IMG/VR virus record: IMGVR_UViG_3300032303_002011 | Span: 1-39,086 of that record | Length of the DNA stretch: 39,086 nucleotides | DNA from: a virus | Taxonomy: Duplodnaviria > Caudoviricetes | Reading direction: 5' to 3' (one strand) | Shown: positions 6,001 to 29,702 of the stretch, one piece after another | Layout of the letters: the number at the start of each line of letters is the position of its first letter | How positions within the stretch are numbered: the stretch's first letter is position 1 | Translations under genes and position numbers: made by a program | The notes under the pieces: generated by a model | Database searches by the model: none | The model's input: the letters and a program-made list of their open reading frames with translations, nothing else | Told to the model about the DNA's origin: nothing

Positions 6001-9000
6001 GATCGTAAGGAACATCATCGCTCCACCAGAAAAGGTTAAAAGAGGTTCTAGCAACGGAGAGAAGAACGAAAGAACGCAACCCGGTGGGAAGCTAATCAAT
6101 TCTTTCGTGAGAAGCTCGATTGCCGAAAGGTTTTACATTCGTGGCTACAGCCAAGACGAGCTTCGTGAGCTCGCATACGACAAGATTATGGATTTGCTTT
6201 CCAAGTCCCCTGCCGGTCAAAAGATTGCAAAACAATATTTATCCGCAAACTCGGAATTCCTTAATGATAATTTAATCAACGCAAAGGGCGGCGCTGAGAT
6301 ATCGGAACGCAAAGAAGGCCAGATGGAGCTAGTCAAAACCCTCGTTGCAAGGGCCAAGTCCGAGGGTAATGCAACACCTACAGGGGCGGATCTGATGGCA
6401 TTCATGACGGCCGAAGAGAAGGCAAAAGGCTTCACCGAAACCGAAATTGAGTCAGCAAGATCAGAAAGACACCTATTTAACTACGTTCTCCGCTCGCTGA
6501 CCAACATGGTCGCAAAGATGACGGGTAACGAGGAGTCCGAAGGTAAAATCATCGCCCAATCCCAGATCGAGAATCGCTACAACAATCTTTCCCCAGAAGC
6601 TGATACAGAGGAAATGGCTGAAAACATGTACGGCAACCAAGCTGGTGTCGAAACAACCATTAGCAATATCCCGCTTGAAGAAGTTTACGAGAACATTGAG
6701 AGAAGCCTCCAAAACACGACTCCAGAAAGAATAATGCGGAGTATCCTTGGAAATCTTGGCGGTAAGGACGGACCGATGGACCTGCATGCACGTGGACTGT
6801 CATTCAGCCAGATTGCAGACGAGCTTAACCTTACTGGAACACAAAGGGATGACGCAAAGGTTTGGAGGTCTATTCAAGAGGGCTACCAAAGAATGCAGGT
6901 AGCTCTGGATGCTATACGAAAAAGAAAATCCGAGCTCGAATCCTTGAGAAACCCGACAGAAGAAGACGAGGCAACTTTAGACGAGATTAACGAATACCTC
7001 GGCGGATTCTCGAAAAAGGACTTGGAGGCCATCAACGCTAAGGCAAAAGAAAAAGAGGAGTTCCAAAAAGCCCTTGATGAATCCCGCCTAGAGAAAGGCG
7101 AGTCAGTACAACAAAGCTTATTCGCCAAAGTCCCAGATGCTCGGATTGTTACTAAATACTACGAGCTACAGGACAAGATACGGGCCGGCGAAGTCACCCC
7201 GAGGGAATTGGACATGTACGACAAGATCGAAAGCATGGCGATTAAGTACAAGTGGCCCGGCGTACCCGTCCAAACACGCCTCTTTGAGCTCGCAAGCATC
7301 ATGCGCCGCACAAAAGACAGCAACACACAGACAGATCTAAACGTAAAGCAGATGGAGCTGATGCTTGATGATGACACTCTCAGCGGTTTGAACGGAAACC
7401 TCAAAGCTAAAACCATTGCCAGAATGAGCGAGGATCAGTTGCTTAACGAACTAGAAGGAGATTGGTTGACAGAAGAAGAGCTCCAGCAAGCGATGGCAGA
7501 CGAAGAGGCCGGCAAATCAAGAGGATTGGCTGACTACGGAGAATCTGAGAACGCAAGTGCTGGTGTTAGGGCTTCCCAAGAGGCAACTCCTCGCCCAGCA
7601 GTCAAGAAGCTCGAGGATACGGCTCGTGGATCGGATTCGATTTCCGATAGGGACATCCTTGCTAGAATGCGTGAAGAAGGTGTGCAGTTGAGCGACGAAG
7701 AGACTTTTGCGGCCAGAAGGGTCAGCAACAAGCTATGGGACGAGGCAATTGAATCTGGGGACGAAACCCAAATCAACAGGGCATTTCTAGTAACCCGCGA
7801 CTACATTCGGTCTGGAACAGAGCAAGCAAGAGGATTGGCCGCTAGAAGGGGTCGCTCGCAAGAAGACGCCCATCGGGATGCAATCCTCTCGCCTATTCTG
7901 CCCACAGAGAACGAGCTCAAAAAAGAAGCCGCCACACAAGCCGTTAAGGCACGGAGAGAGGCTTCCAGCAAAAGGGCGCAGGTCGAAGACGCTAAGAGCA
8001 AACTCAGCAAGCAAGACCAGCAACGCCCCGATTGGAAAGAATGGTTTGACACCCAAGAGAAAGAGATTGCTGAACACAAGAAGACAATTGCTGATGGTGG
8101 ACGGAGCAAGGCCGAAGAAGTTGTCGTGGACAAGAAACGCAAAAAAGCTGAAGAAGCCCTAGCTGTTACAGGCAGAAACCTCGCGACCCTCGAAACCGAG
8201 AACACAATCCACAAGCTCCGCACGGGTGAGACAATGAATCAGATCTTGGGCAAGATAGGAGACCCCATCCTCCGCGAAGCCGTCCGGATGTACACACAAG
8301 GCATGGCGGTTAAGGATATTGAAAAAACCCTCGGCAAGAAGGGGCTAAAAAACGACATCAACAAGGCAATTGTTAATGGCCTACAGCCCGAAATGGACCG
8401 CCGGTTCCAAAGACTTTATGATGAAGTAGCCGAAAAGGGGCTGACAAAAAAACAACTTATTGCGCGGCTGAAGAAGCTATCGAATGGGCAATCTCTTCTT
8501 GCCAAAGGCATGGATAATCAGGATGACGGATCACCCCTCACCCAAGAGGAGGCACGGCAAATTACCCAAGAGATGTTCGGGCTTACCACCGAAGGGCTAA
8601 ACCGAGAGAAAAGTGAGCAGTTATTTAACTACAAAGATCAAGTCCAAGTTAGCAAAATACAATCTCTCATAACCGAGGGTGTAGATGGACCCGCTTCTTG
8701 GGGCAAGATAGCAAGCGATGTATTTGCCTCATTTATATTTAGCGGAGCCCCATCATTAGTGGCAAATGTTGGCTTAACAACAATTGCTTGGGCGAGCGTA
8801 CCGGCGCATCTTTTTGCCGAAGCTATAACTTCACGGATGAAGGGTGATGTGAAAATGGCCTACGGAGACGAAATTATTGGAACCCCATACAAAAACATTG
8901 GCGAAGCCGTGTCGGGAGGCATCACGGAAGCAAAGTCCGCTTTAGCATCCATTAAAATTGGGGCACTAAACGCCGCTTGGGCCAAAGCTTGTGATGCATT

Positions 9001-10862: not shown

Positions 10863-13082
10863 ATGGCGTCCACACAAATCGAGAATCTTGTCGCTAGAGC
10901 AGAAGCACTTGAGGAAGCGCTAGATACGCCAAAAAGCACCGAAGAGGGAGAGGCTCTTGGTGGCGGTAAACCAACAGAAACAGGATTTTCCTCGGCATAT
11001 AAGCTCACAGCAGAACAGGAGAGAATCCTTGTAGATCATGCGGTTGAGAGGCTTCGCAAGCTTGAGCGTGATATGGGCAGATCCCTAGTCCGAAACATGG
11101 CGTGGAGCACTCAGTCCGGCACAATGGCCGCTTACGACACCTTCTTAGGACGCAGACAGGTCTTTGAATGGCTTTACGAAAATAACGTAGATTGGAGGCC
11201 TGCGGTCATGGGTGGAATCTTTGAGCACAGCAACCTTGTTGTGCCTATTACCCGCCGAATCGTCCGCCAGATGATTGCCCGGGCTCAGAAATACTTCATC
11301 GGCACAGATCCTTGGTTTGCAACCTTCCCTCAGGGGCCGGCAGATAGGGACATTTGCGATAAGGTTGAGAAGTACGCTCGCTGGAAGTTCGATAAGACCA
11401 AGCTGAAGGAGGCTATTGCCATGATCCTTCAGATGGCCTTCGTGCGTGGCGAATGCGTAGTTAAGACCACCTTCCAAAAGAAAGAGAACATCTTCCAGCG
11501 GAAGGCCAAGGTTCTGGTAGATGCTGATGGCAACGACATCCTTGGAGCTGATGGAGACATTATCACCGATACGGACGCTTTTGTTATTGGACAGGACGGA
11601 ATGACCCTTGTTCTCCAAAGGGACGGAGTAACCGAACAGCCCCTTGTACCTATTTTCATTGAGAAAATCATCACCCGCAAAGTCGTGACCCATAGCGGTC
11701 CTACTGCCGAGCCGATCTACTACCAAGATTTTATCTGCCCCCTAAACGCAACAAGCATCGATGATGCCGACTTCTGCGCTCACCTTTACGATGCTCCCGT
11801 GATGGAGTTAACCGACTTTTACTCGAAGTCACCCAAGGAAGAGACTCCAGAAGCAGAATTGGCAAGGCTGACAGCCGCTATTGAACAGATTCGCTTAGGC
11901 GCCGGTGAAAGCGGAATGGCTAAATCGGCAACAGGCCAAGCAAGAGTCGAGCGCGGGGAGACCCAACTCAGCCCAGACGATACGAACCCCAAGATGGAAA
12001 TTGCAGAATGCTACATCCGTTATGATGCTAACAATGACGGAATCCTTGAGGAAATCGTCCTCATGCTCGATGTTCAAAACCGCAGGGCTTTGTATTATGA
12101 CTATCTAGCCAATGTAACTCCCGACGGGAAAAGGCCGTTCACCGCAGTCCGCATCAACCCTGTTGACGGCCGGTGGTATGGTTTGGGTGCAGTTGAGCAG
12201 TTCAAGACATCCCAAGACTTCGTTGATTTGACGATTAACAGGCTGAATTTCGCTCAAGGAGCCTCTGGAAGGGTCACTTTCTGGCGTCCCGACGCTACCT
12301 TTGAGGGGTCGGCAAATCCCAATTTGATCCTCAATACTGGCGGGACTTACACGCTTCGGCCCGGGTTTTCCGCTCCTGACGCCCTCACCTACGTCAATTT
12401 GCCAGAAACAAAGAACAATGACCTAAACTTCATGCTTAATTACTTCACTCAGATCGTCCAACTGGAGTCGGGTGTTGTGAACGGCGGGGATCAGGAGTTT
12501 TCTGGTTTGCCTAGCAGTAAGCTCGCAACCGGAATCCGCTCCATTGACCAAGCTGGGACCGAAATGTTCAGCCAATATCTGCTCTCGCTTGAGTCTCCCC
12601 TCACCCAGATCATCAACCGACTCATGACCATTCTTCTGGATAATTTAGATAAACAGGAAGCCTTTACCTACCTCGAGGGAGATGCGGCGAGCTTAATCAG
12701 CGTAACTCCTGACGATGTGCGGGGGATGGATCTAAACATCAAGCTCCTCCTAACCCGCTATCACGGAGAGCAACAGCTACAAAGCAACGCCCAAGCGGCC
12801 AATCTGGTTGCTCAATTCTACGGACTGCCTCCAGAGGTTCAGCAGAAAGTCGGACTCTTCTACCGCCAGAGCTTAAAGGCTCTTGGAATCATGGAAGCCG
12901 ACTCGATTATCCAAGCTTTTGAGCCACCTCCCGCAGTTAATGGCATTACCCCAGACGGAAGAGTCTTTGGACAGGCTGGATCTCCGGGTTCCCCCACTTC
13001 TTCGGTTGGTGGATCTAGGCAGGTTCCGATGGATGCGGGATCGGCTGGAGGGCCAAATCCGGGTAATGGGACATCGCTATGA
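10863..13082 (+). CDS. Portal protein (podovirus/P22-like)
   Basis: 739 aa; MAFVRGECVVK, RPF..PVDGRWYGLG..QD..N, QLESGV..ATGI pattern and Pro/Gly-rich tail typical of this portal class. Confidence 0.85.
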   Translation: MASTQIENLVARAEALEEALDTPKSTEEGEALGGGKPTETGFSSAYKLTAEQERILVDHAVERLRKLERDMGRSLVRNMAWSTQSGTMAAYDTFLGRRQVFEWLYENNVDWRPAVMGGIFEHSNLVVPITRRIVRQMIARAQKYFIGTDPWFATFPQGPADRDICDKVEKYARWKFDKTKLKEAIAMILQMAFVRGECVVKTTFQKKENIFQRKAKVLVDADGNDILGADGDIITDTDAFVIGQDGMTLVLQRDGVTEQPLVPIFIEKIITRKVVTHSGPTAEPIYYQDFICPLNATSIDDADFCAHLYDAPVMELTDFYSKSPKEETPEAELARLTAAIEQIRLGAGESGMAKSATGQARVERGETQLSPDDTNPKMEIAECYIRYDANNDGILEEIVLMLDVQNRRALYYDYLANVTPDGKRPFTAVRINPVDGRWYGLGAVEQFKTSQDFVDLTINRLNFAQGASGRVTFWRPDATFEGSANPNLILNTGGTYTLRPGFSAPDALTYVNLPETKNNDLNFMLNYFTQIVQLESGVVNGGDQEFSGLPSSKLATGIRSIDQAGTEMFSQYLLSLESPLTQIINRLMTILLDNLDKQEAFTYLEGDAASLISVTPDDVRGMDLNIKLLLTRYHGEQQLQSNAQAANLVAQFYGLPPEVQQKVGLFYRQSLKALGIMEADSIIQAFEPPPAVNGITPDGRVFGQAGSPGSPTSSVGGSRQVPMDAGSAGGPNPGNGTSL

Positions 13083-13408
13083 CCCTTAATCAAGCGTTTG
13101 GTACTGGAAACGTAACAGCAACCACAATTAGTGGCGTCACAAAAGTGACATTCAAGAAATCTCTTTTCGATGAAATTTCAACAGCGGAAGCAAACGCTAC
13201 GGGGGGAGACATTCGCAAGGTTGTATACGGAATGGTCAAAGGGCTAATTGGAATCGTTAACTCCGAGAGGGCAAAAGACACAACCCTGACAAGCGTGGTT
13301 CCATCTGAGTCATACCAAAACCTGTATCCTTCGGACGATACGCAATACTCAGGACAAATGGTGTTTGCAGTTGCGCCTATTGTTAACGACGTAAAGGACG
13401 AGCCTTAA
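13079..13408 (+). CDS. Small virion-associated protein (putative fibre attachment)
   Basis: 109 aa; ATGA overlap with the portal stop; directly precedes the fibre-like gene. Confidence 0.5.
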   Translation: MTLNQAFGTGNVTATTISGVTKVTFKKSLFDEISTAEANATGGDIRKVVYGMVKGLIGIVNSERAKDTTLTSVVPSESYQNLYPSDDTQYSGQMVFAVAPIVNDVKDEP

Positions 13409-13409
13409 T

Positions 13410-16400
13410 ATGGCTTTCAATAAAGCCCCAAGTAGCTGGCTTACGGGGTACACCTACACCAGCGATCAGATCTCCTTCAGCCTGTCTGGGGACTACACAG
13501 CAGAATGCCAAGATGCAATGGGTTTAATCTTTAGAGTCACGGACGAGATTCTGAATAAATATACCAGCAAAACACCTTCCGAAAGGCCGGTTCAATGGGA
13601 GTCGTCCTGTCTAATAACTCAACCAACGCAGGCAAACCCAAGCTCGCTTAAAACAATCACAAACAAATTTGTATTAGATGCAGAGCTATTTTCTGGGTTA
13701 GCCATACCGTCTCTTGACGTAACAATATCAACTCCCGACATGGTTTATACTGGTTTTGGCTATGGGGCTACGTCTTACAGCGCCCCCAGCGGAAGCTCTG
13801 TGACCATTACCTATAGTGCAGATGGCGGTCAGACATTCTCAGGGACGCTCCCTGTCGCGAGGGGATCTTATATTGCTAGAATCGTAGCAACAAAAGACGG
13901 AAGGTCTGGAACGGCAAGGTCAGGGTTCTCTATACTTAAATCAACTCCAGCCGTAATTGCTGGGAATGATATTACGGAAGAATATTCATCTGGGACGATA
14001 AACACTAACTTTTATAGCAGCGCAAATTTTGTTTCAATTACTTCATCAAACCCAGCCGTGGTGTCAGTTGTATCCTTTACTACAGGAGGGGGAGTTGTTC
14101 TACAGAAGAACAGCATTGGGCAAGCAGATATTATAGCATATACAGAGGAAACATCCGACAACTACACATCCTCCGGAAGTAAGGCGGTAATCTTAACAGC
14201 CAAACCAGCATTGATAAATGCTCCAGCAACCTTAGCTATTTCAGCATCAAACGGGCTATCTCAAGCTCTTCAATTCACCCCAAACTTTACCCTGACTCCA
14301 ATTAGGTACTCTTTGCTAGAAATAACTTCTAGCAATACTGCAGTAGCTACAATACAAAAGGGTTCAGCCTACCCGCCAACAATCAATATCATTACAGGTG
14401 GAGCTTGCGAGATTGCCATTGCATTCCCCGGGGACTCTGAATACGGATCTGTAACAAGCCTGACTGCACTTACTGTTTCTGGAATAACTCCAGTTCAAGA
14501 GGTTGCAATAGCCAAAGCGTCATCGCAGGCGCTTTTCAGCGGAGATGATGGCATCGTAATTACACAACCAACGAGTCCAGCAACAGGCCCATGGGGATCT
14601 AATAAGTTATGGACGATTAGGATTGGATTAGATTCAGACCAGAACAATGAAGTCGACGGGCAAATCCCAACGCTTCCATACGTCTTTGAAATAGCAATTA
14701 CAGACGCCATCGGGCAACAGGGATCAACCGGAGCAACTTCTACCACCTTTACAAACTATGCAACAAATAACTGGATATCATTCTCTATCTCCGGAGGGAA
14801 AATTATAGCAACAGTAACAAGTGCACCGTCTTCACCTAACAACGGAGAAATCTCTGGGGGAGCTTTATTTGTAACAAAAGCCCCAGCAGATGGGGTGTTG
14901 GCATGGACAGCGCAGTTTGAAATAACTGTATACGTTGACGGACCTAGGCTTGCTCTTTATCAGTCTGGTTTTTATGGAGAGGCAGGAATAGACCCAGAAA
15001 AAGAAATAAGCTCAACATCACTTACTCTTAATACACAAGCTCAAGGCGAACCATTTCTTTCGCAATGGGATTCCGACGAAGAACATGCTGTACGGATGAA
15101 GGTTATTGGAGCCGGCGGAGCACCTACAAATAAATCCGCTTCAATCGCCTTACTCAACCAGTATGGCCAGCCTTTTTCAGATGATTCCGTATATTTAAAT
15201 TCTGGGTCTAACAGCATTTCTGTGGAGCAAAACACCTACTTTTATCTGTTTATAAAAGAGCCACTTACTTTCATGATATCTATTTCGCTACAAAATTCAA
15301 CGCCAACATATTCAAAAGTCTTCACTATTGCTGTGTCTCAGGTTTCGCCTTCACTAACCCTGCAAATACTTCCGGTGTCAAGTGGCCAAAATTCACATAT
15401 ATGTTGTGATACAAATGGATGCCCCGATTTTTCTTTAATTGCAAATGTCCAAGAATACCCACCCCTTATCGCTCAGATTGTACCAGAGACATTGGCTTGG
15501 TCTGGTAGCGAATCACGTCTAGGCGTTACTTTTTCTAGCTCAAAAGTATCTACCACAGGCGAAAGAGTTAAAATATCTGGGGGCAAGACAAAGTTTAATA
15601 TAAAAGCAACAGGCGATAGTTATCTTACGATGACCCTTTCAACTCCAAGCAGCGAGTTGTATAAGAGCTTTTCAATCACAAAAAGCATAAGAGTAAAAAA
15701 GCCAATCCTTAAAGGCGAATATAGAAGCACAAAAAAGATGTTTAGTGATTATTTGCAAGGACAAACGGGATTATACCAAACTTCGGAGCATGTTCTTGGT
15801 CTTGGAGGAACGGGTTATGGCGTCATGGGGGTTTATGATCAGATACCAGAGCGAACTACAACTTATACGGCAACTCCAGAAAGCGGAGTAGCTGGATACG
15901 ATCCTGCAGATGCCAATACCTTTGGCCCTTCCGTATATCTGGCCAGTATAGACCTGTACGGATTTTCCTGCCTTAGTGATCTTGGTGCAAACAGGCGTTC
16001 ATACATTAGTTCGCAACTGCCAGAAATACCAATGATCGCAAAAACCTTGCCTACATTATATTCTCAATATGGGTCTTATGGGTACAGCCCAAACTCAACT
16101 CCACCTGAAGACGTAGTTAGCACTACAGGGATTGACTTAGAAACGATCTACATGGGAACCTCTCCGGAATACGGAATCTTCTACGGAAACAAACAAACGC
16201 CGAGGACGAATAACGCCAAATGGGGCGGTTATGGTAATTGGTTGCTAAATCAAAACGAAACAATTAAAACCGCTCATAGGGGTAGTGGTGCAAGCAACTA
16301 CAGCGCCTACACCGGATTTAGCCAGCTAGTTGGATTCGGCGTTGGTGGCGTCTATATCGGATTTGACCCAACCTCTGCTATTAGACTAAGCAACCCTATG

Positions 16401-16838
16401 AATACCGTGAGAGAAATAAGGTTTTATTTGGCCACTCTTAACGTAGCACTAGTGTACAACATGTTTGTCCCTTTTAATGGCAGAATAGCTGACGGCACAA
16501 CGAGGTTAAATTCAGTAGCGGGCCCCAACAATAATACCGAGACGTCACCATACGGACCGTGGACATATTGGATCGGGGAGAATAGCGATGTCCAACTTTA
16601 TACATCTCCAGATTTCCCATATCAGAATGGAACGATCTCCGATTATTTCCAAATTACTGGACCAACAAAAACGCTTACCTTCAGAAGTGAGGCAGGTATG
16701 GGAAGCAACCCAGCCGTTCCCGGCACCCCACCTACCGTCAGGCTTGGAGATGATGAGTTCACCGGGAATTACTTTGGCTCGCAATACTGGCAAGACGGAG
16801 ATTCCGTTGAGGTGGTCAATATCAGCACGGGGGCATAA
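13410..16838 (+). CDS. Tail fibre / adhesin with Ig-like repeats
   Basis: 1142 aa, S/T/G/Y-rich; two Big_2-like motifs (ITSSNPAVVSV, ITSSNTAVATI); aromatic-rich C-terminal region. Confidence 0.7.
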   Translation: MAFNKAPSSWLTGYTYTSDQISFSLSGDYTAECQDAMGLIFRVTDEILNKYTSKTPSERPVQWESSCLITQPTQANPSSLKTITNKFVLDAELFSGLAIPSLDVTISTPDMVYTGFGYGATSYSAPSGSSVTITYSADGGQTFSGTLPVARGSYIARIVATKDGRSGTARSGFSILKSTPAVIAGNDITEEYSSGTINTNFYSSANFVSITSSNPAVVSVVSFTTGGGVVLQKNSIGQADIIAYTEETSDNYTSSGSKAVILTAKPALINAPATLAISASNGLSQALQFTPNFTLTPIRYSLLEITSSNTAVATIQKGSAYPPTINIITGGACEIAIAFPGDSEYGSVTSLTALTVSGITPVQEVAIAKASSQALFSGDDGIVITQPTSPATGPWGSNKLWTIRIGLDSDQNNEVDGQIPTLPYVFEIAITDAIGQQGSTGATSTTFTNYATNNWISFSISGGKIIATVTSAPSSPNNGEISGGALFVTKAPADGVLAWTAQFEITVYVDGPRLALYQSGFYGEAGIDPEKEISSTSLTLNTQAQGEPFLSQWDSDEEHAVRMKVIGAGGAPTNKSASIALLNQYGQPFSDDSVYLNSGSNSISVEQNTYFYLFIKEPLTFMISISLQNSTPTYSKVFTIAVSQVSPSLTLQILPVSSGQNSHICCDTNGCPDFSLIANVQEYPPLIAQIVPETLAWSGSESRLGVTFSSSKVSTTGERVKISGGKTKFNIKATGDSYLTMTLSTPSSELYKSFSITKSIRVKKPILKGEYRSTKKMFSDYLQGQTGLYQTSEHVLGLGGTGYGVMGVYDQIPERTTTYTATPESGVAGYDPADANTFGPSVYLASIDLYGFSCLSDLGANRRSYISSQLPEIPMIAKTLPTLYSQYGSYGYSPNSTPPEDVVSTTGIDLETIYMGTSPEYGIFYGNKQTPRTNNAKWGGYGNWLLNQNETIKTAHRGSGASNYSAYTGFSQLVGFGVGGVYIGFDPTSAIRLSNPMNTVREIRFYLATLNVALVYNMFVPFNGRIADGTTRLNSVAGPNNNTETSPYGPWTYWIGENSDVQLYTSPDFPYQNGTISDYFQITGPTKTLTFRSEAGMGSNPAVPGTPPTVRLGDDEFTGNYFGSQYWQDGDSVEVVNISTGA

Positions 16839-16839
16839 A

Positions 16840-17382
16840 ATGGACAAAAGCTCAATGGTCGGATCTGTCAGCGCAAATGACATTAACGCATTAGGCGTAA
16901 GCCCAGCAAAAACATACGGGCATGTGGCTGGAACACCCGCAAGGTTCTTCGGTGCTGGTATTATCAAGCTTCCAAAGCTGGATGATGAAACTCCTTTCCG
17001 TGTTCACATAAGAAAGACTCAGGCAGGGTCATACGAGTTCAAGGCAAGAACAGGCTTTGTTGACGGGCTAAAGGCAACCGGAGGAACCACTTGGGACCGA
17101 ATAGTTCCGCAAAGCCAATCAGTAATCCTTTCGGCTACAGTAGAAAAAGATACAATGACGATAACAAAGGCCGAGGTTAAAGCCGACAAGGTTCAAGAAC
17201 CTTTCAGAGTAATAATCTCTGGCGGCACACAGACCTACGCAAAGATTATTATTGCCCAGTTTGAAGTATCCGGAAACGAGGTAACAGTCATACAGAATGT
17301 AAAAACAAATCTCATAGCCCAGCTAAAATGTGTAGATGGGTACGCCGCAAAGATTCTGCTTCAAGAATACTTAACAACATGA
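16840..17382 (+). CDS. Hypothetical beta-rich virion protein
   Basis: Start re-called to ATG 16840 (MDKSSMV), 1 nt after the upstream stop; the 16588 start would overlap the fibre gene by 250 nt. Confidence 0.6.
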   Translation: MDKSSMVGSVSANDINALGVSPAKTYGHVAGTPARFFGAGIIKLPKLDDETPFRVHIRKTQAGSYEFKARTGFVDGLKATGGTTWDRIVPQSQSVILSATVEKDTMTITKAEVKADKVQEPFRVIISGGTQTYAKIIIAQFEVSGNEVTVIQNVKTNLIAQLKCVDGYAAKILLQEYLTT

Positions 17383-18293
17383 GCCTGTTATTTGATGTAC
17401 CATGCCTAACGATTAAACCTTCAAAAAAACCTACTGACATGGATCAAGATTATTGGGACGCAAGGAACAAAGTCTCGATAACATTAGCCCAATACGTGAA
17501 ATGGGTTAACGCAAAATGGGAGGGAGGAAAGGTTATGTCTGGTTCCTACAGCAAAGAAGTATATTGCGACACGTGTAAATCATACGAAATCACGGTTCAC
17601 TTATCAACAAACAAAACTCATGACGAATATTATAACAGGCTCAACAAAGTGGTAAAGAATAATTTAACATGCGAAGGAGATCCAAGGGATGGATTTAATA
17701 ACGAACCAAGTAGATATGGGAAAATACCTGAAGCAGACCTAATGAAGATGAGGTACAATGTATGCTACGGAAATGAAGCTACAGCAGTCTTTCTTACGAA
17801 ATATCGCAGAACAAATAATCCGGGAGGAGACTATTGCTCTCCGGGTGAAGGCGCCCCGCCCGCAGAGGATAGGTGTGCGCCCGGAATTGCGAATGTCGAC
17901 AGCAGATCCATGAGCACAACCACATGCGGAAATTGCACATATAGTGGGCCTAATAATAATTATATTGAGGGAAAAACAGCATGCGTTTGGTGTTCATATA
18001 ATGTGAGGTTCTGTTCGTCAATAGCCATTAAAATCCTTGGCGGATGGTACGATATTGAAACAAAGAAAGTATTCCCAGATATTGCATTCGGCGGGTCTTA
18101 CCCAAGATACAATTGGGTTGGCTATGCCTTAAAAGATTCCGAGAACACGGGACCACAAGGCAAACACAGAACAAGTACAAACGTTAAAGTAGATGGAATT
18201 AGTATTCCGTGCGGAACAGATTGGAGTACTTACGGAGATTCTGGGGGCATAAACTCAACGCTAACATGGACCGCAAGAATTAGGGATCTCTAG
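17379..18293 (+). CDS. Cysteine-rich hypothetical protein
   Basis: ATGA-coupled start at 17379 (MSLLFDVPC); 13 Cys including CDTC, CGNC and CVWC. Confidence 0.6.
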   Translation: MSLLFDVPCLTIKPSKKPTDMDQDYWDARNKVSITLAQYVKWVNAKWEGGKVMSGSYSKEVYCDTCKSYEITVHLSTNKTHDEYYNRLNKVVKNNLTCEGDPRDGFNNEPSRYGKIPEADLMKMRYNVCYGNEATAVFLTKYRRTNNPGGDYCSPGEGAPPAEDRCAPGIANVDSRSMSTTTCGNCTYSGPNNNYIEGKTACVWCSYNVRFCSSIAIKILGGWYDIETKKVFPDIAFGGSYPRYNWVGYALKDSENTGPQGKHRTSTNVKVDGISIPCGTDWSTYGDSGGINSTLTWTARIRDL

Positions 18294-19385: not shown

Positions 19386-20909
19386 ATGGCTGAAAACCTT
19401 AGCATTCCTACAAATAACGCTACTAGCGACTTTAAGTCGCAATCCCCCACGTTCCTTCCGGAATTGTGGAAAAAAGGAGTTCAACTCTCGGAAGCCGCTG
19501 AGAACTTTTTCAATCAGTTCGAAGGCCCGACTGAGAATTACTCCGTAATGTCGGTCCGCGACTTGTCTCGCGGAGCTGGCACCAAAATCACGTTCCGCAC
19601 CATGGCGCAACTCTACGGAGAAGGCGTACAGGGCGAAACACTCATCAACAGCAACACGGAAGATTTCCGCGTTGGTGCTTACAACCTGACCGTTGATTTC
19701 CTACGGCATGCGGTTTCTTACAATCGCCGGCTCGAAGAGAAAACGGCTTTGGCTTCTGAATTGAAGTCGAATGTTCCTGTCATGCTGGGCAACTGGCTTG
19801 GCCGGATGAAGACTGAGCGCTTGATGAAACTCTTCCTCCACAAGGGGAACGGGCGGAATTATGTGTTCGCCAACGGCAAAGCTAATACCGATGCCTTGTT
19901 GAGCACGGACACCCTCAGCTACGATGGAATCATTGCCTACGGACAACAGCTTCGCACTCGCGGTGCTCGTCCCGCTCAGGTTGCGACCATCGACAAGAAC
20001 AAGCTCAACCGCTACGTGGTAGTTTCCACCGGTGAAGGGCTCCTCTCGCTGAAAAGCGAAGACAAGTACCTGAAGGCAGTTCAAGCGGCTGGTGGGCGTG
20101 AAGGCTACAATGGAGTTCAATTCACGGGCGGATTCGTTGACCTCGACGGCCACATCATTCGTCAGTTTGATCCTATCGATCACGACGGATTTGGTGCTAT
20201 CGGGTCTCCTCTGAACGCGAAAGCAACCCTCGGAACGGCGATCACCGCCACCACGGGTTCTGCGATCACGGTTCGGGCGACTGCCACTCAGGTGAGCGCG
20301 ACCATCCCCGGATACGGAGCCTCGTACTTCAAGTACTTCTCTGGCTTCAGCTATCCGTTCAGCGCGGACGATTCGGACAACAAGATCCTCGGCACGGCCA
20401 CCACCGGTGGTTATGTCTTGATCCTCAACCTGACGGGTTCCGATGCAGGCAAGTACGGTTTCTACCGCTACTCTGCTAACAACGGCAACACCCTCACCTT
20501 GGATCGCGGTCTCGTTGCCACCACCGGAACTGAAGGCACGTCGGAAGCGTTCCAACTCAAGAAAACAGTTGGAAGCGTTGCCAGCCATGCCACCACCGGT
20601 GCTTGGGCTAACGCCAACCTCACCAACAGCCACCCCGTAGGCTCGCTCGTTATCGAGACGAATGCTCGCGGTGTTGCGATTGGTCGTTCCCTCGTCTTGG
20701 GAGCCATGGCCGCTGTTCGCGGTTACGGATCTCTCGACGGCGAGCGCTCCGAGGAAACCTTTGACGGAGATTTCGTGCGTAAGACCTACATTACCTCGAT
20801 CTTCGGACAGGCTCCTTACCAGCGTCCGGACGGCGATCTGCCTAACTTCTTGGTCGCTACCCATGCGGTCAACTACGCAGGTCTGAATCTGCCCTCGGTG
20901 ACTAGCTAA
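19386..20909 (+). CDS. Major capsid protein (N4-gp56/DUF4043-like, HK97 fold)
   Basis: DLSRGAGTKITF..LYGEGVQGE..E..LTVDFLRHAV motif; strong SD, biased codon use and downstream terminator. Confidence 0.88.
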   Translation: MAENLSIPTNNATSDFKSQSPTFLPELWKKGVQLSEAAENFFNQFEGPTENYSVMSVRDLSRGAGTKITFRTMAQLYGEGVQGETLINSNTEDFRVGAYNLTVDFLRHAVSYNRRLEEKTALASELKSNVPVMLGNWLGRMKTERLMKLFLHKGNGRNYVFANGKANTDALLSTDTLSYDGIIAYGQQLRTRGARPAQVATIDKNKLNRYVVVSTGEGLLSLKSEDKYLKAVQAAGGREGYNGVQFTGGFVDLDGHIIRQFDPIDHDGFGAIGSPLNAKATLGTAITATTGSAITVRATATQVSATIPGYGASYFKYFSGFSYPFSADDSDNKILGTATTGGYVLILNLTGSDAGKYGFYRYSANNGNTLTLDRGLVATTGTEGTSEAFQLKKTVGSVASHATTGAWANANLTNSHPVGSLVIETNARGVAIGRSLVLGAMAAVRGYGSLDGERSEETFDGDFVRKTYITSIFGQAPYQRPDGDLPNFLVATHAVNYAGLNLPSVTS

Positions 20910-20970: not shown

Positions 20971-21282
20971 ATGAGAGCAGTTTGCGTTATCCGAGACGGG
21001 CCAAGGTATGTGCCTGTCTTCGTTATTCACGATAAAACCAACAAGAGACATAACTTTGTTTGGTCTGCCGTGTATAACGCCCATATCTGGGATCGTGGAG
21101 ATCTAGGACCAGAAGACTCCCGCGACCTAGATAATATCCTTTCTAGAGCAGACAATTTCTACCGAGCTTCCGTGATTCTAAGGCCTGACGATGTCACGCC
21201 TCCTATCGTTCCTAATGAAGTAGTCGAACAGCCTAAGCCTAAAAACAAGGGTGGACGCCCACGGAAAGTGCAGGTGGCGTGA
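20971..21282 (+). CDS. Hypothetical protein with basic C-terminal GRPRK (AT-hook-like) motif
   Basis: 103 aa ending KPKNKGGRPRKVQVA; a gene type often found after capsid genes. Confidence 0.65.
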   Translation: MRAVCVIRDGPRYVPVFVIHDKTNKRHNFVWSAVYNAHIWDRGDLGPEDSRDLDNILSRADNFYRASVILRPDDVTPPIVPNEVVEQPKPKNKGGRPRKVQVA

Positions 21283-21950
21283 AGGTAAACGAAGCCATTG
21301 ATGCCATGTACGAAGTGTTCGGGGTTCCGAACAATGCTTCAGCGCCTCCCATCATGCAGAGGCGTATCTTCAATGACCTCAACTCTGCCATGCAGTTGCT
21401 ATGGACGAAGGGGCATCGGCTTCTTGATTACTACACAAGAGGCGAAGTCACAGTAACCATCCAAGCTAACAGCAAGTCGCAAGCCCTTTCCGACAGCGTT
21501 CAGTCCGTGATTGGCCCTGTCCGCAGAGCCACGGACAACATGATGCTTCGACCAATTAAAAGCCGTGGCGAATACGAGAATTACGCAAGCATCTATGCCG
21601 GTAGCTTGACCCAATTAGCTGGCTCCCCTCCTCAGGCTTACTTCATTGAGGCATCGAGGAATTCGCCACCCGACGCAACAAGCATCAGCATTTTTGTTGT
21701 CCCTGTTCCGATTGTGAGTACGGACCTCAAGGTTGCCGTATCCCTAAATGCTCCAGCCTTTACCCAGACGGATTACACAAACCACACGGAGATACCAATC
21801 CCCCACAACTATGCAGAAACCCTGCTGTTGCCCGTGGCCAGATATCTCACATGCTCTTCCCTTTTCTTTGCTGATAAATCGAAACAACGCGAGCCCCTGC
21901 TGAAAGCAGAATACGACAGGGCTCTACAAACCCTGGTGGAATCCGTATGA
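21279..21950 (+). CDS. Head-tail adaptor / tail tubular protein A-like
   Basis: N-terminal helices (IFNDLNSAMQ), G.P.AYF, IFVVPVP, IPIP..Y and C-terminal helices. Confidence 0.7.
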   Translation: MKVNEAIDAMYEVFGVPNNASAPPIMQRRIFNDLNSAMQLLWTKGHRLLDYYTRGEVTVTIQANSKSQALSDSVQSVIGPVRRATDNMMLRPIKSRGEYENYASIYAGSLTQLAGSPPQAYFIEASRNSPPDATSISIFVVPVPIVSTDLKVAVSLNAPAFTQTDYTNHTEIPIPHNYAETLLLPVARYLTCSSLFFADKSKQREPLLKAEYDRALQTLVESV

Positions 21951-22813
21951 CGAGTCTTCAACTAGCGCAAAGGGCTTTGTCTTTCACAAAGTTACCTACC
22001 GACCCAGCGAACATCTCGGCCAACGAGGCCGCTACGATAGTTGGTGCGATCAATGCTGGAATGTCTCGTTATTACATCAGCGCACCCAGCGGAAGGAAAA
22101 CAACCCCTGTAACTGCCTACATCAAGGCTCCTGAGCCGGTAAACATTGGACTTACAAAAGGGTCTTATAATACTACCGGACTAAACCTCGGAACCGATGA
22201 CAGAATGGGCGACACAATTCTTGTCGCTGACAGGAAGATTCGTTTGGCAATTGGAACAAAGCTCCGTGAGCCATGGCCTCTTGAAACAGGAACATACGCA
22301 GGCACTCTTTATGATGATGCCGTTCCGCTTTATACCCCTGTCCGCAGGATTGAGGGTTATGTCATTTTCGATGAGCGTTATAGACTCCCTTTCCTTGCCG
22401 ACACACCCGTAAGAGAAGATGAGATAGTAGTTCCAAGAAGGAGCGGATCGCCGGCGTTCTTTTCTATTGAAAGCCTTGGGGACGCCGTCGGTGGATCTGC
22501 CAGAGCTCTTGTGAGACTATACCCTGCCCCTTCTCAGGCTTCCACAATCCGATTCGCGGCAAGCATCGAAGCCCAAACATTCACGATAGCTAACTTGTCT
22601 GATGCTGTTGCCGTGTACGCCAGCCCTATGGATGTTGAGGCATTTATCGTGCCTTTAATCGCTTCAGAATTGGCTCTAACGCAATACTGGCAAGACGGAG
22701 TATCCCGAGAGCTTGCAATTGGCAAAGGCAGGGAAACAGAGGCTTTCCTTCGAACATACCATGAGCCAACCGGCCCCTCCATGAGCAGGGCTCTTACCCC
22801 AATAGGATTCTAA
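21947..22813 (+). CDS. Second adaptor-like neck protein
   Basis: Same architecture: AINAGM, SGSPAFF, VRLYPAP, FIVPLIA; coupled to its neighbours. Confidence 0.6.
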   Translation: MTSLQLAQRALSFTKLPTDPANISANEAATIVGAINAGMSRYYISAPSGRKTTPVTAYIKAPEPVNIGLTKGSYNTTGLNLGTDDRMGDTILVADRKIRLAIGTKLREPWPLETGTYAGTLYDDAVPLYTPVRRIEGYVIFDERYRLPFLADTPVREDEIVVPRRSGSPAFFSIESLGDAVGGSARALVRLYPAPSQASTIRFAASIEAQTFTIANLSDAVAVYASPMDVEAFIVPLIASELALTQYWQDGVSRELAIGKGRETEAFLRTYHEPTGPSMSRALTPIGF

Positions 22814-23436
22814 TGGCTTTAGTAGCAACATTCGATCTTGCCGAGAACATGATAACCAGCGTCCTATCGCAGGTTCGTCGTGGCGTATCGCTATCCAGAA
22901 TGGATAACACGGAGAATTCAACTAGGGGGGTAATGGTCGACCTTCCCGAAAAAATTGATTTTGAAATAAACCTGCTTAAATACCACCAGCTTCTCAGCAG
23001 GCAGACAACATCGACAGAAACGAGTTTATCTGCAGACGCAGAGTCATTGGCTTCAGTTGACTCGGAGTTATCACGCGACAGCGAAAGATCCCTAGATAAT
23101 TCGCGGTCGGGCGGAGGCTCGAATGAGGGGAACCGATCTTTATCCAGAGAGGTCAGTCTCGACTCAAATCGTGGTGGTGAAGGCTCATCAATGAGAGGCG
23201 GCGGAAGCTCATCTGATTCCGTAAGTTCAAGCGGAACGGAAGACAGGAGCTCAAAGAAAAATGAAAAAGAAATTGATTCTGCGTCGAGTAGCTCAAAAGA
23301 GAACTCTAACGAGACCAATAAGGACAATTCAACTAGATTAGACTACGAATGCTCAGACAAGTGGGTTACCTCTGAGACAAACAGAAATTATTGGAAACTC
23401 GATGAAGATACTGGAGTAGTAACACAAGCATCATGA
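22813..23436 (+). CDS. Ser/acidic alternating-register protein A1 (putative beta-tube subunit)
   Basis: N-terminal domain VRRGV..G.M.DLP.K.DFEI..HQ.LSR shared with 24184..24846, followed by a long polar tract. Confidence 0.7.
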   Translation: MALVATFDLAENMITSVLSQVRRGVSLSRMDNTENSTRGVMVDLPEKIDFEINLLKYHQLLSRQTTSTETSLSADAESLASVDSELSRDSERSLDNSRSGGGSNEGNRSLSREVSLDSNRGGEGSSMRGGGSSSDSVSSSGTEDRSSKKNEKEIDSASSSSKENSNETNKDNSTRLDYECSDKWVTSETNRNYWKLDEDTGVVTQAS

Positions 23437-23915
23437 GCTTTACACTTGTAGATTATCTAAATAGCGCAACAGGACAATCGGTTAACTCCGGTAGCGGTAG
23501 TGGGTCTAGCTCTGGATCGTCCTCTGGCTCATCATCGGCATCATCCTCAACCAGCACCTCTTCATCTAGGAGTAGCTCAACGAGCGATTCGTCTAGTCAA
23601 AGCTCTAGCCGTAGCGGAAGCAATTCAAGCAGCAACAGCAGGTCTTCATCTACAAGCGGAATTTCAAGCAATAGCTCAAGCGGATCAAGCTCATCCTCTT
23701 CCTCTAGGAGCGGTTCCTCTTCTAGCTCCACAAGTTCTAGTGGGTCTGGTAGCCGTTCTGGCTCATCAAGTTCTTCATCCAGTAGATCTTCTAGTTCGTC
23801 CAGATCGTCTTCTGGCGGGTCCTCGAGAACAGAAACTCAAAAAGATGATATCGGCTGTGTTGTCCGATTCAGCGTTCCAATTGTTGTCCAATTCCCGGGA
23901 GATGTTTCGCCATGA
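23433..23915 (+). CDS. Poly-(Ser-X) protein B (putative beta-tube subunit)
   Basis: ATGA-coupled at both ends; 114-residue Ser tract using all six Ser codons; C-terminal VVRFSVPIVV strand. Confidence 0.7.
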   Translation: MSFTLVDYLNSATGQSVNSGSGSGSSSGSSSGSSSASSSTSTSSSRSSSTSDSSSQSSSRSGSNSSSNSRSSSTSGISSNSSSGSSSSSSSRSGSSSSSTSSSGSGSRSGSSSSSSSRSSSSSRSSSGGSSRTETQKDDIGCVVRFSVPIVVQFPGDVSP

Positions 23916-24187
23916 ATGACGAAGGCAAAGCTCTTGAGCGGATAGCTCGCGTTGAGGAAAACCAGCGGTGGGTGATGCAAAACCTAACCGATATTCGAAA
24001 TATGCTTGAGAAGTCCCTGTCCGAGAAAGGAGAGGCCCATGAGCGTGTTTTAGAAAGGCTAAATAACGTCGAGGATGATGTCACCGGAATAAAAACCAAA
24101 CTATGGATGTTTGGGATTGGTGCTGGAGCGATCCTGACGGCCTTATGGGAGCTTGCAAAAGCAAAGCTATGGGGTGACCACCCGTGA
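23912..24187 (+). CDS. Coiled-coil protein with a C-terminal TM helix (XhlA-like/holin-like)
   Basis: ERIARVEE..ERLNNVE coiled coil, then LWMFGIGAGAILTALW. Confidence 0.6.
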   Translation: MNDEGKALERIARVEENQRWVMQNLTDIRNMLEKSLSEKGEAHERVLERLNNVEDDVTGIKTKLWMFGIGAGAILTALWELAKAKLWGDHP

Positions 24188-24846
24188 CAATTGTCCAGCT
24201 TTCAGATCTGGATGATTTCTTAAAAGACTCGCTATCAATAGTGAGGCGTGGAGTTGCTAATGCGAGGAACGCAAATCAGTCAAACCCTGCCCTCGGAATT
24301 ATGGCAGACCTCCCAGACAAAGTGGATTTTGAAATAATGGTGGTATCAAATCACCAATCTTTAAGCAGAGTAGCATCAACCACATCTTCCGATTCAAGCT
24401 CAATTAGTGAAATACTTGGGTCTAGGGAAAATGGTGGCTCACTAACCGGAGGTTCTTCCGTTGAGTCCAACTCTAAGAGCGATTTAGCCAACGAGAGTTC
24501 TTTAGACACATCTTCCATAACTAACTCGAAAAAAGCGGATTCTGGAAGTTCATCCTTTGAACTCGATTCAGAAACATCAAATGGAAATTCCAAGGAATAT
24601 GATAACTCCTCATCAAAAGGGTACGGCACATCCGACAGCAACGAGAAGGGAACAAGAAGCGAAAACAGATCAGCCACAAATACCTCTTCAAACAACAAAA
24701 ACGAGAAAAGCAAAAGCATGCAAATAGGCCGAACAAGAGAGAGCAACAAGCATCAGGTAAAAGGATTTGACCAATCCACCGGCCGATGGGGAGGCCAGAA
24801 TTTCGCTCCAGTTCAACCAGAAAGACAAGAACTAAAATGCTCTTAG
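24184..24846 (+). CDS. Ser/acidic alternating-register protein A2 (paralog of 22813..23436)
   Basis: GTGA-coupled start; aligns without gaps to A1 in the N-domain and ends its tract with FDQSTG versus LDEDTG. Confidence 0.7.
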   Translation: MTIVQLSDLDDFLKDSLSIVRRGVANARNANQSNPALGIMADLPDKVDFEIMVVSNHQSLSRVASTTSSDSSSISEILGSRENGGSLTGGSSVESNSKSDLANESSLDTSSITNSKKADSGSSSFELDSETSNGNSKEYDNSSSKGYGTSDSNEKGTRSENRSATNTSSNNKNEKSKSMQIGRTRESNKHQVKGFDQSTGRWGGQNFAPVQPERQELKCS

Positions 24847-25214
24847 TATTTGCGTTATTTTTCTTGGCTGGGTGCTCAACCACACAGCATCAATCCCCAT
24901 CTTTTGATAGGGCATATTCCTACTTAGACCAAGCGTCTGACTCTGCATCCGGGAGGACGGCGGAAGCCATCAAAAAAGCCAAAGAGCAGATTATAGCCGC
25001 AGATAAAGCGTGTTTAGCCAACACAGAAGCCCTCGATGAGGCTGTTAGGGCCAAAAACGAGGCGATCAAAGACGCCGAATACTGGAAAGCAAAACAGCGG
25101 AAAGCTCTTAAAGAGCTATGGGTATGGCGCGGGCTTCTAATTGTGGTTGGATTGTTTGCCCTCAGGGGGCCGATCTTCTGGGTGATTCGTAAATTCATAG
25201 GTATCCCTTGGTGA
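24837..25214 (+). CDS. Lipoprotein, putative unimolecular spanin
   Basis: Start re-called to ATG 24837: MLLVFALFFLAG-C lipobox, Ala/Lys helical middle, C-terminal hydrophobic segment; within the lysis cluster. Confidence 0.65.
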   Translation: MLLVFALFFLAGCSTTQHQSPSFDRAYSYLDQASDSASGRTAEAIKKAKEQIIAADKACLANTEALDEAVRAKNEAIKDAEYWKAKQRKALKELWVWRGLLIVVGLFALRGPIFWVIRKFIGIPW

Positions 25215-25558
25215 AGAAATTCATTTCCCATCTGCAAGGCGTCACCTGTTTTTCCATTGCGTCCTTCATATTCTGGTTCTCTGGGCCGATTGTTCAGCAT
25301 TTCGACCCAACCGCTGGAGTTTGGGATCGCGGGTCAATGCACGGGCTGGCGATTGGAGCTTGTGCATACTTTCTTGCCGTATGGTTGGCTTGGCTGGCCT
25401 TTCAGATTGAGTGGCCTTCTTTAGATAAGCACATCGACGAGAACAGGTGGCTTCAAGACATGCGAGCCATGTCCCCTGCTTCTCGGGTTTGGTTCACCTT
25501 AGCTGTCTGGTCAGTTCTATTTACTGGAGCCCTTTTATGCCTTCTGTCATGGAGGTAA
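25211..25558 (+). CDS. Putative holin (3 TM)
   Basis: GTGA-coupled start; three hydrophobic segments; directly upstream of the endolysin. Confidence 0.6.
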   Translation: MKKFISHLQGVTCFSIASFIFWFSGPIVQHFDPTAGVWDRGSMHGLAIGACAYFLAVWLAWLAFQIEWPSLDKHIDENRWLQDMRAMSPASRVWFTLAVWSVLFTGALLCLLSWR

Positions 25559-25562
25559 TCAA

Positions 25563-26072
25563 ATGCGCCTGTCACTTGTCGGTATTGTGTTTTGTCTCGC
25601 TAATACGCTACTTGCGGGACCAAGAGAGGACGTTGCCTTTATCGCAACAGCCCTATTGGAGACAAAAGAAGAATGGGGCGAAAACTCGGGGCCCATGGTG
25701 GATCAAATCCTTGCTTCCGTGGGTCTTCCTCCCGGGAATCCTTGGTGTGCGGCTTTCAACTACTACTGCTTTAGCCGAGCCGGTTATGCGGATGCCGTCC
25801 CCAGAACAGGTTGGTCTCCGTCGTGGTTGGCTGGACAAAGAAAGCCAGCCGAAAAAGCCCAAACCGCCGACGTCTTCGGTATCTATTTTAGCAGTCTCCG
25901 CAGAATTGCCCATACAGGGATCATAGAGAAGCCCTGTAATGGCTACTGCATAACCATAGAAGGAAACACAAACAATGGAGGCTCAAGAGATGGAGACGGG
26001 GTCTATCGCAGAAGAAGGCCAAACAAAACAATCGTCATCAAAGATTGGCTCGAAGAAGCCGTCTCTCGGTGA
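25563..26072 (+). CDS. CHAP-domain endolysin with N-terminal signal sequence
   Basis: E..GENSG, PWCAAF (catalytic Cys), HTGII (His), TIEGNT; hydrophobic N-terminus. Confidence 0.88.
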   Translation: MRLSLVGIVFCLANTLLAGPREDVAFIATALLETKEEWGENSGPMVDQILASVGLPPGNPWCAAFNYYCFSRAGYADAVPRTGWSPSWLAGQRKPAEKAQTADVFGIYFSSLRRIAHTGIIEKPCNGYCITIEGNTNNGGSRDGDGVYRRRRPNKTIVIKDWLEEAVSR

Positions 26073-28026: not shown

Positions 28027-29076
28027 TCAGAGGTGTTCTGAGAACCTTCTAAAGGCCGATTCCCCGTCACCAATTCCAGCCATAAGAGCCGTATGGGCAT
28101 TCATGGCCATAAGCTCCCTAGCTTGAGTATCAAAAGCCAGAGCGCTTAGTCTGTAGACTACTTGCTCGTCGTTTTTGCATAACAAACCGGTTCGGCCATC
28201 TTCTATAAACTCAGGCATCCCGCCTGTATTAGATCCAACTACAATGGACCCAGATGCCATAGCCTCAAAAGCAACCCGAGGAGCGTTCTCAACTACAGGG
28301 TAGTACATAAGGGTTGCGTGGCAGGCGCTCATCATGTCTCCAATGACCGCCGGGTCATAGACATGCCCGTTAATAGATCCGGATAACTTTCCGTGATATG
28401 CGTGATCTGGCTTCCTATAGTCACCTATCTTAGCCTCTCCATTCGGCCCCCAGCCAATCAAATGGATGCCTTTTGGCTTTGGTGAGGCAAACCTGTGCAC
28501 AATCTCCCATAGGTTATCTGGGTACTTGTCTGGATCATCTCTTCCAATCTTAAGCACATCAAACCTAGATCTATCTTTGGGGTAATTCCTAAATTTGCTC
28601 CAAGAGGAAAGAAGGTTGAAATAGGGTTCACAATGAATGAAGTTATGGCTTAGCCCTAAAGGGATAAGCTCATTATTGAGGGCATTTTGCTGGTATCTGG
28701 ATTGGCACAAGACGCGGAGATTTGGTATTCTCCCAATCGCAATCTTTTCTTCAACCGAAAGAAAGTTCATGCACGGCCAGTAAGCGATTAGGGCAGGTTT
28801 TTCATCATTCCTATAGATGTAGGAGAACAGGTCTTGTTCGCACCAGCACCAGACCACCTTATCGGTTAGCACCCCGGGGGCGTATTCTTTGGTTTTAACA
28901 CCTATTGCGTCAAAATACTTCCTTCTGGGCTCATCGGCCCCCAATACGTCTGTGCCAGCCTTAAGAACGCAGGTTACATCAATATCCCTGCTCCTTAATA
29001 ATTCAATGATATGACCAACTTCAGGACCGGCTCCACCGCATTGGTGTAAATAGCCCCAAACGTAGATTTCCTTCAT
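28027..29076 (-). CDS. Glycosyltransferase, GT-B fold (GT4-like)
   Basis: N-terminal GGAG; ENAPRVAFEAMASG..VVGSNTGGMPEFIEDGRTGLL signature. Confidence 0.9.
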   Translation of the reverse strand: MKEIYVWGYLHQCGGAGPEVGHIIELLRSRDIDVTCVLKAGTDVLGADEPRRKYFDAIGVKTKEYAPGVLTDKVVWCWCEQDLFSYIYRNDEKPALIAYWPCMNFLSVEEKIAIGRIPNLRVLCQSRYQQNALNNELIPLGLSHNFIHCEPYFNLLSSWSKFRNYPKDRSRFDVLKIGRDDPDKYPDNLWEIVHRFASPKPKGIHLIGWGPNGEAKIGDYRKPDHAYHGKLSGSINGHVYDPAVIGDMMSACHATLMYYPVVENAPRVAFEAMASGSIVVGSNTGGMPEFIEDGRTGLLCKNDEQVVYRLSALAFDTQARELMAMNAHTALMAGIGDGESAFRRFSEHL

Positions 29077-29702
29077 AGGTAAAACCAGATTCTTTCAATG
29101 CAGTGGGGTGAAAAAGGCGACAAGCAACAGCACTTTGAGCTGTAATAGCCGACAGGATGAATGCATCCCTCGGAACTAGGATTCCTGAGCCTATCTCGTA
29201 TCTGAATCCAAGATTCAAGGCTCCTTGCCCTTATGCGTTTTGCTGAATAGCCAAAGATCTGGCCAGCTGGGTAATAAATCACCTCAGGAATTTCTGTGCC
29301 AAAAATCTCATGCCATGTCTGTTTCACGAATGGAGCAAGATCAGTGTGATTTTCAGACGCTTCCCTCCAATGAGTTTCGATTGAGCCAAGCTTGAAGATT
29401 GGGGCGCCAGATTGGACTACCCCAAAATCTGCCCACTTATTAAGCAATTCTATAAAGTCTCGAGAATGTGGAAACGGGTCCCCTTGAGCAAAGAAAACTC
29501 GGCATGGAAGCCTTTCGTAGTTCTCTATTATGAAAGTCAGGTGCGTGTCTGTATCAAGCCCAACATTCTCAAGCTTTACTCCGTTTTCGGATAGCTCCCC
29601 TTTGTCGTAGATAACAAATGGAACTTTAACCTCTTTCAGCCACGAAATGTCCTCGTTATGCCTAGCCACAACCAGCATTGATGGTATTCCGGATATTTTC
29701 AC
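29073..29702 (-). CDS. DUF3431-like protein (putative glycan-related)
   Basis: LVVARHNEDISWL..IYDKG..LENVG....HL.FIIENYE.LP..VFF.QGDPFPH..H..ER.W. Confidence 0.75.
   Translation of the reverse strand: MKISGIPSMLVVARHNEDISWLKEVKVPFVIYDKGELSENGVKLENVGLDTDTHLTFIIENYERLPCRVFFAQGDPFPHSRDFIELLNKWADFGVVQSGAPIFKLGSIETHWREASENHTDLAPFVKQTWHEIFGTEIPEVIYYPAGQIFGYSAKRIRARSLESWIQIRDRLRNPSSEGCIHPVGYYSSKCCCLSPFSPHCIERIWFYL

Follow-up and report, generated by a model that had tools for sequence, protein, structure and literature searches.

Length-locked polar strands encoded by three neighbouring podophage genes: a candidate split beta-barrel tail tube

The window analysed here, a stretch of 39,086 nucleotides, corresponds to positions 1 to 39,086 of IMG/VR record IMGVR_UViG_3300032303_002011, a single linear virus record that is ~60% complete. 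It derives from an uncultured short-tailed phage (podophage) with an SU10-like portal, and three of its neighbouring genes on the plus strand, here referred to as A1, B and A2, are the subject of this work. The gene order is adaptor 1, adaptor 2, A1, B, a 91-amino-acid (aa) open reading frame (ORF), A2 and a lysis cassette. A1 (22813..23436; 207 aa) has a conserved head consisting of a helix and a DFE strand (residues ~1–65), followed by a two-faced polar tract and an aromatic tip (site L196). B (23433..23915; 160 aa) begins with a short hydrophobic N-end (at L5) and continues through a tract to a conserved C-terminal strand (around F146). A2 (24184..24846; 220 aa, GTG start) is a paralog of A1 with a C-terminal extension that ends in cysteine. 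A1 and A2 are predicted to supply two outgoing strands, and B the returning strand.

The first-pass annotation, made from the sequence alone, had identified an N-domain common to A1 and A2, and BLASTP bore this out (E 4e-16), the tracts ending in LDEDTG (A1) and FDQSTG (A2). B was said to start with the same turn motif, LNSATG, and to finish in VVRFSVPIVV. The latter end was confirmed, and LNSATG is present, but it is not conserved in two other clades; it is therefore not a shared turn motif and was dropped. In a second assembly of the same study, the entire stretch is present with 43 substitutions but without gaps; a further assembly is identical and may be the source. Pfam and PHROGs scans yielded no match for A1, B or A2, an ESM Atlas search with the A1 head returned only generic helix matches with no usable feature, and PDB sequence searches with A profiles gave nothing meaningful (0 matches at E<=10 for the A-head profile). 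An AlphaFold2 (AF2) monomer model of A1 had a predicted local distance difference test (pLDDT) score of 48, with a helix at residues 7–31 and a tip hairpin at low confidence. Conserved cysteines occur near the tip in A1 (C180, 23350–23352), near the head in B (C142, 23856–23858) and at the end of A2 (C219, 24838–24840), and in the L054 clade (4797–5087) the near-tip cysteine is in B (C19) and absent from A1; a disulfide or a metal site is possible.

Relatives were gathered from viral and metagenome contigs, and truncated ORFs were excluded from all span counts. Spans were measured from the F of DFE to the tip aromatic in the A proteins, and from residue 5 to the F of RFSVP in B. The A1 and A2 spans of the window are identical (146 residues). 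Among 23 distinct B sequences the span took 16 distinct values, from 79 to 207 residues, all 16 of them odd. A2 exceeded B by 5 residues in 21 of 22 trios, including that of G001, for which the A2 span (196) was counted by hand. A1 exceeded B by 5 in 11/20 and by 7 in 9/20, and every offset of 7 was paired with a two-residue insertion in the head (Q-to-R spacing of 6, not 4). With this head correction, which was chosen after the data were seen, the offset was fixed in 15/15 distinct length pairs for A1, and it was fixed in 14/15 for A2; equal offsets never rose above 8/15 in 200,000 permutations, in which kinship was not removed. Close sisters differ in length, as illustrated by the window (141) and L001 (199), which are 0.046 apart on the adaptor-2 tree. 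The insertions and deletions (indels) found in 10 pairwise comparisons were all of even length (35/35), and the frequent odd-length indels among homologs that had been named as an argument against paired strands were thus not found.

Four of these 10 pairs were used to compare insertion sites, three of equal length and three with several indels being left out. The DNA-level insertion ranges, measured from the head in the A genes and from the C-terminal strand in B, overlapped in all four single-insertion pairs (73–80/66–77/75–82; 21–27/17–24/21–30; 94–123/112–124/112–120; 59–82/59–140/53–61). When B was instead measured by hand from its N-end, as in a parallel register, only one of the four fitted, namely the last, poorly resolved pair. 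With the A tip aromatic facing B residue 5 or two residues off, basic residues of B lay opposite acidic residues of A2 in 58–63% of cases, and the top charge-complementary shift of the 25 compared was 0 or −2 for A2–B in 4/4 clades and for A1–B in 3/4 (L028 was left out of the charge tests). The span lock, the insertion sites and the charge shift agree with the proposal of the first-pass annotation that the A chains supply the strand leading outwards and B an antiparallel one of equal length leading back. The A and B strands therefore very probably pair antiparallel and in register, and the sequences make a strong case that each A chain would run from its helical head to the tip, with B running back.

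The tracts have a marked beta-strand character, with one proline among 9,073 residues. In the window, 55 of the 59 residues on one face of the B tract are serine, and the opposite face carries eight arginines; for pooled B sequences, one face is 86% Ser and the other 15% Arg/Lys. In pooled A sequences, Asp/Glu account for 33–34% of one face and 1–3% of the other, on which large hydrophobics reach 12–17%. Hydrophobic residues make up 3–17% of the tract faces, no run of five out of five hydrophobic positions was found on a face in 67 tracts, and no tract face carries a membrane-type hydrophobic belt. Residue volume, used as a measure of period 2, was not significant in the tracts of the window itself (p 0.09–0.21); the composition of the faces and their conservation proved more telling. 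Between the A1 of the window and that of the L002 genome, 46 of 58 residues are identical on the acidic face and 16 of 58 on the other; in B, the Ser face uses all six serine codons, with many synonymous changes between the same two genomes. This unequal conservation and these synonymous changes therefore point to selection on a two-faced beta-strand rather than to a DNA repeat. In L017, the small residues of A1 and A2 are on opposite faces, which, together with the polar nature of both faces, is more in keeping with a wide, solvated barrel than with a packed core. The favoured register would place the Arg face of B and the acidic face of A on one side, and the Ser face of B and the variable face of A on the other.

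The A-head profile had 60 matches among 1.84 billion representatives, 14 of which were short distant proteins, and these 14 distant A relatives had no Pfam match. The B-type end motif was found in none of the 60 representative A-head matches, and no search was aimed at longer unsplit forms; A and B were separate ORFs in all the loci read. At the loci of the distant relatives the system has two genes, A followed by B, which occupy the position of the trio behind two adaptors. This two-gene form implies one A per B, the trio being most simply explained by a duplication of A. In the two-gene clade, the length offset was constant in 5/6. Here the tracts are uninterrupted repeats, (NENR)n in one partner and (TSTG)n or (TTGS)n in the other (L063, L064, L065 and L071, 6989–8600), and repeat types swap between A and B in close relatives, one bulky and one small strand being kept. 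No match to the A1 head or to P0073 was found in the GenBank phage collection, and therefore no cultured member was found there. A viral scan with alignment A7 confirmed 0 of 189 candidates, and the sequencing runs listed as carrying the sequence include no RNA run. Two loci were located in metagenome-assembled genomes (MAGs) labelled Luteolibacter and Verrucomicrobiaceae. These labels are a host lead only, as binning can misplace phage contigs, and in 401 genomes of the phylum of the Luteolibacter MAG the A-head profile had a single match, that MAG itself.

The trio had been described as following the two adaptor genes, and A1 does start directly 3' of adaptor 2. The A/B genes were found directly after two adaptors in every inspected genome but G411. 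We suggest, with a probability of about one half, that A1, B and A2 would form a wide barrel tail tube for DNA like that of phi29 gp11, preformed in the virion. Of the elements behind this reading, the gene order, the length lock, the even indels and the two-faced composition are observed. A and B strands would alternate in an antiparallel beta-barrel hanging from the adaptor rings, with the heads uppermost and the tip formed by the free ends, where the A tip aromatic would face residue 5 of B or a position two residues away. This water-filled barrel under the adaptor rings would be the tail tube through which the DNA passes. By analogy with phi29 gp11, A-type and B strands may be present in equal numbers, for example 12 B, 6 A1 and 6 A2 (24 strands as in gp11, a guess at the stoichiometry), which would give a 12-to-6 symmetry step. 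Tail length would be set by strand length, so a tape measure would not be needed. Either the Ser/Thr/Asn-rich side or the side with A acids and B arginines could line the lumen; the Pepco lumen is described as charged, and phi29 gp11 as acidic outside and Arg/Lys-rich inside (PMC12642450; PMC6542822).

According to PMC6542822, phi29 gp11 is a tube of 12 hairpins and 24 strands through which DNA passes, 180 Å long and 32 Å wide inside, each pair of 180-Å strands being built from 156 residues, including a 16-residue loop (~0.26 nm per residue). Applied here, this geometry would give a tube of ~36 nm for the window, and of 20–60 nm across the family, so the earlier estimate of 35–43 nm for the barrel appears reasonable. 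The likeness to gp11 lies in long antiparallel strands that come from helical heads, in a short-tailed phage, with a length fixed by the strands. The equal-length antiparallel strand pair of gp11 would also have its counterpart here, judging from the sequences, but between chains rather than within one. By contrast, a single 293-aa chain provides both strands of gp11, which is 18 nm long with a tail-knob cap, whereas two or three genes encode the strands here, and the strand length varies about threefold. The system would most likely work like the phi29 lower collar, an analogy that carries no claim of kinship to gp11.

The portal and adaptor families match those of Kuravirus SU10, the short tail of which reaches ~28 nm further (PMC9509320), but in SU10 the nozzle is a beta-propeller and is accompanied by short fibres and a needle. 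None of these was detected here, and the system described here has two adaptor paralogs. In line with the first-pass annotation, no nozzle, tube or tape-measure family was matched among the 37 ORFs scanned in the window, ~60% complete as it is. A conventional nozzle or tube was not found elsewhere either, in profile scans and gene cross-comparison of complete relatives. The core of five relatives (G001, G003, G008, G009 and G010) and the window comprises the terminase (which the incomplete window lacks), portal, likely scaffold, capsid, a small gene, two adaptors, A head, giant protein and lysis genes. The five relatives share no conserved unassigned gene of nozzle size (450–1000 aa), and a candidate gene of 434/481 aa is of low complexity. 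PF11134 (P22 hub) and PF25675 (nozzle), the latter of which matched no control genome either, were found in 0/5 complete genomes, and no tube, sheath or tape-measure family was matched among the selected ORFs of relatives in PHROG/Pfam scans.

Several observations weigh against the tail-tube reading. Closure of the barrel, the number of strands and presence in the virion are predicted only, and no tip or plug protein that would close the tube was identified. A divergent nozzle could have escaped the profiles; the nozzles of SU10 and T7 are reported to lack detectable sequence likeness (PMC9509320). In G411 (L062, 6995–7827), ~12 kb separate the A/B pair from the adaptor, the pair following the giant gene and preceding a probable glycosyltransferase. 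The length lock has two exceptions. B of L028 is 10 aa too short, being the B of L010 apart from a 30-nucleotide deletion of a tandem copy, with an identical A2, and the offset of L064 is 24 aa off. Both mismatches are in tandem repeats, and assembly collapse is possible but unproven; that of L028 may alternatively be real. Among the insertion sites, those of the last of the four pairs are poorly resolved and scattered at the protein level; the protein-level indel sites of the most diverged pair, L023/L053, do not coincide (78, 139, 175). Repeats inflate the pooled charge-shuffle test, and alone it is not decisive, because the parallel control also beats the shuffles when all data are pooled and in clade c2, which is rich in repeats.

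It had been suggested that the proteins have the layout of Trypco2/Pepco (PF19631, PF24393), for which an N-terminal helix, a hydrophobic-polar strand and an oligomeric beta-barrel of 9–11 subunits are described, the Pepco barrel having a hydrophobic exterior and a partner protease (PMC12642450). This idea found weak backing in the A head and none in the B tail, for which the last strand had been proposed. The A head was collinear with the N-terminal half of Trypco2 over 45 columns (HH probability 23–30%, pairwise E 6e-4 to 9e-4), and its score was above those of 60/60 block shuffles and of a reversed control, with a narrow Trypco2 alignment (38 rows, Neff 3.9). The B tail, with a profile too short for a firm negative (26 columns), landed on the Trypco2 hairpin tip with a probability of 0.6%, within the range of the shuffles. 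The Atlas (score 0.77, cluster 10% Trypco2) provided a lead only. Neither PF19631 nor PF24393 matched A1, B or A2 at E<=0.05, the six-frame translation of the window, or 20 relatives at E<=1. No trypsin- or caspase-like protease was found among the 37 ORFs of the window, the nearest peptidase being the CHAP endolysin. Trypco2/Pepco proteins resemble the A head in having an N-terminal helix and then a strand, but they are small unsplit defence effectors with a protease partner and a hydrophobic exterior, whereas split genes and polar faces are found here. Judged by Pfam matches, gene structure, protease partner and chemistry of the exterior, A1, B and A2 thus fall outside Trypco2/Pepco, and a link to these families appears weak for A and unsupported for B. 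In a cellular locus (L075, 1231–2016, G022), we observed a protein in which a lipoprotein-like signal precedes two Trypco2 domains in tandem, beside a LexA-like gene and with no protease in the stretch listed.

The earlier interpretation as a whole is partly supported. In its boldest form, a Pepco-type pore hairpin would have been divided at the tip between separate genes, and the single strands, lengthened to 80–230 residues, would zip into a heteromeric beta-barrel of 20–60 nm. This barrel would take the place of nozzle, tube and tape measure, might form only upon infection, and would have its length tuned through insertions matched between the two or three genes. We regard this version as tentative and rather doubtful.

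An alternative that we consider unlikely, albeit plausible, is that the virion contains A and B in unassembled form and that the same barrel zips together only on infection, as an ejection conduit extending a stub tail across the envelope, with the split hairpin preventing premature assembly. The pairing evidence (length lock, insertion sites and charge shift) applies equally to such a conduit; A1 alone is predicted to be largely unstructured (pLDDT 48), the A head is weakly like a pore-forming family, and SU10 is described as extending its tail, with ejection proteins forming a periplasmic channel (PMC9509320). However, the tracts would cross the envelope without a membrane-spanning hydrophobic belt, the genes lie with the adaptors and not, G411 excepted, with the giant and low-complexity candidate ejection genes, and the adaptor rings of the mature virion would still need to be closed. 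There is a comparably small chance that a few A/B strands assemble into a narrow needle, plug or fibre, a thin rod or twisted ribbon that lacks a lumen for DNA and plugs the tail or reaches the receptor. The length lock and the antiparallel register fit such a rod equally well, the nearly invariant Ser face of B could pack tightly, and SU10 has a 26-nm needle (PMC9509320). Nevertheless, no side is small in all three chains, given the acidic residues and large hydrophobics on the A faces, and the opposite small faces of A1 and A2 in L017 argue in the same direction; moreover, a needle needs a nozzle as its seat, none of which was found, and relatives have separate tail-fibre genes.

That the trio is instead a phage-captured Pepco-like effector, a pore outside the virion serving lysis or host takeover, seems improbable: the holin-like ORF and the lysis cassette adjoin it in the window and the A head has its weak Trypco2 similarity, but the polar faces and the absence of a protease match differ from the hydrophobic exterior and protease described for Pepco (PMC12642450), and two-gene phages keep the adaptor link while fibre genes separate A/B from the lysis genes. 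The view that the tracts are disordered low-complexity linkers, equal in length through shared descent or repeat slippage, can draw on low AF2 confidence, the pure tandem repeats of the two-gene clade and the relatedness of the sequences, but it is largely refuted by the even indels and matching insertion sites, and, with offsets fixed while spans change between sisters and two faces under different selection, its likelihood is minimal.

The following neighbours of the trio are all on the plus strand. The SU10-like portal (10863..13082; PF23899, E 5.5e-25), the major capsid protein (19386..20909; Pfam/PHROG scans) and head-tail adaptor 1 (SU10_adaptor, 21279..21950; PF24175, E 6.8e-7, above the cut-off) precede adaptor 2 (21947..22813; 288 aa), a paralog of adaptor 1 (HH 98%, E 1.3e-13) with an inserted beta domain at about residues 51–123. 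The model of adaptor 2 (pLDDT 82) was closest to chains of podophage portal-tail complexes, the best match being that of cyanophage A4 (Z 12.7, root-mean-square deviation 5.0, 193 residues aligned). The tandem paralogous adaptor genes (21279–22813) are kept in trio phages and pair phages. The two adaptors may form stacked rings or one mixed ring, and adaptor 2 is likely the docking ring for the A/B heads. The 91-aa ORF between B and A2 (23912..24187) had weak holin and XhlA matches (E 0.035 and 0.007) and is probably a passenger, because B and A2 abut in L054, L057 and L058.

Other features of the window are farther from the trio. A 3,586-aa ORF (89–10849) has a ddrB-like ParB domain, and its counterpart in G009 matches a DarB-like antirestriction family; this giant protein is probably cargo for ejection, its middle domains being exchangeable. 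Between the portal and the likely scaffold lie four unassigned genes (109, 1142, 264 and 321 aa; 13079–18293). This module is mostly exchanged for other genes in G003, and is therefore variable and not part of a core tail. The labels scaffold and ejection protein in these genomes are our assumptions from position and general knowledge. The lysis cassette (24786–26072) comprises a weak Rz-like match, a 116-aa hydrophobic protein and the CHAP endolysin. On the minus strand, a phage group 1 glycosyltransferase and a DUF3431 gene (28027–29702) might modify the virion or host surface, and the Ser/Thr-rich strands are, as a speculation, conceivable substrates.

The length lock provides a rare example of residue-exact co-evolution of indels across three genes. 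Neither the family nor a tail of this design was found described in the open-access literature searched. If the tail-tube reading is true, chains encoded separately would set the length of the tail through that of their strands, and the tail length of particles should scale between relatives by ~0.26 nm per residue. The system would then be a natural length-programmable protein nanotube, and it would suggest a possible link between defence pore-formers and phage tails.

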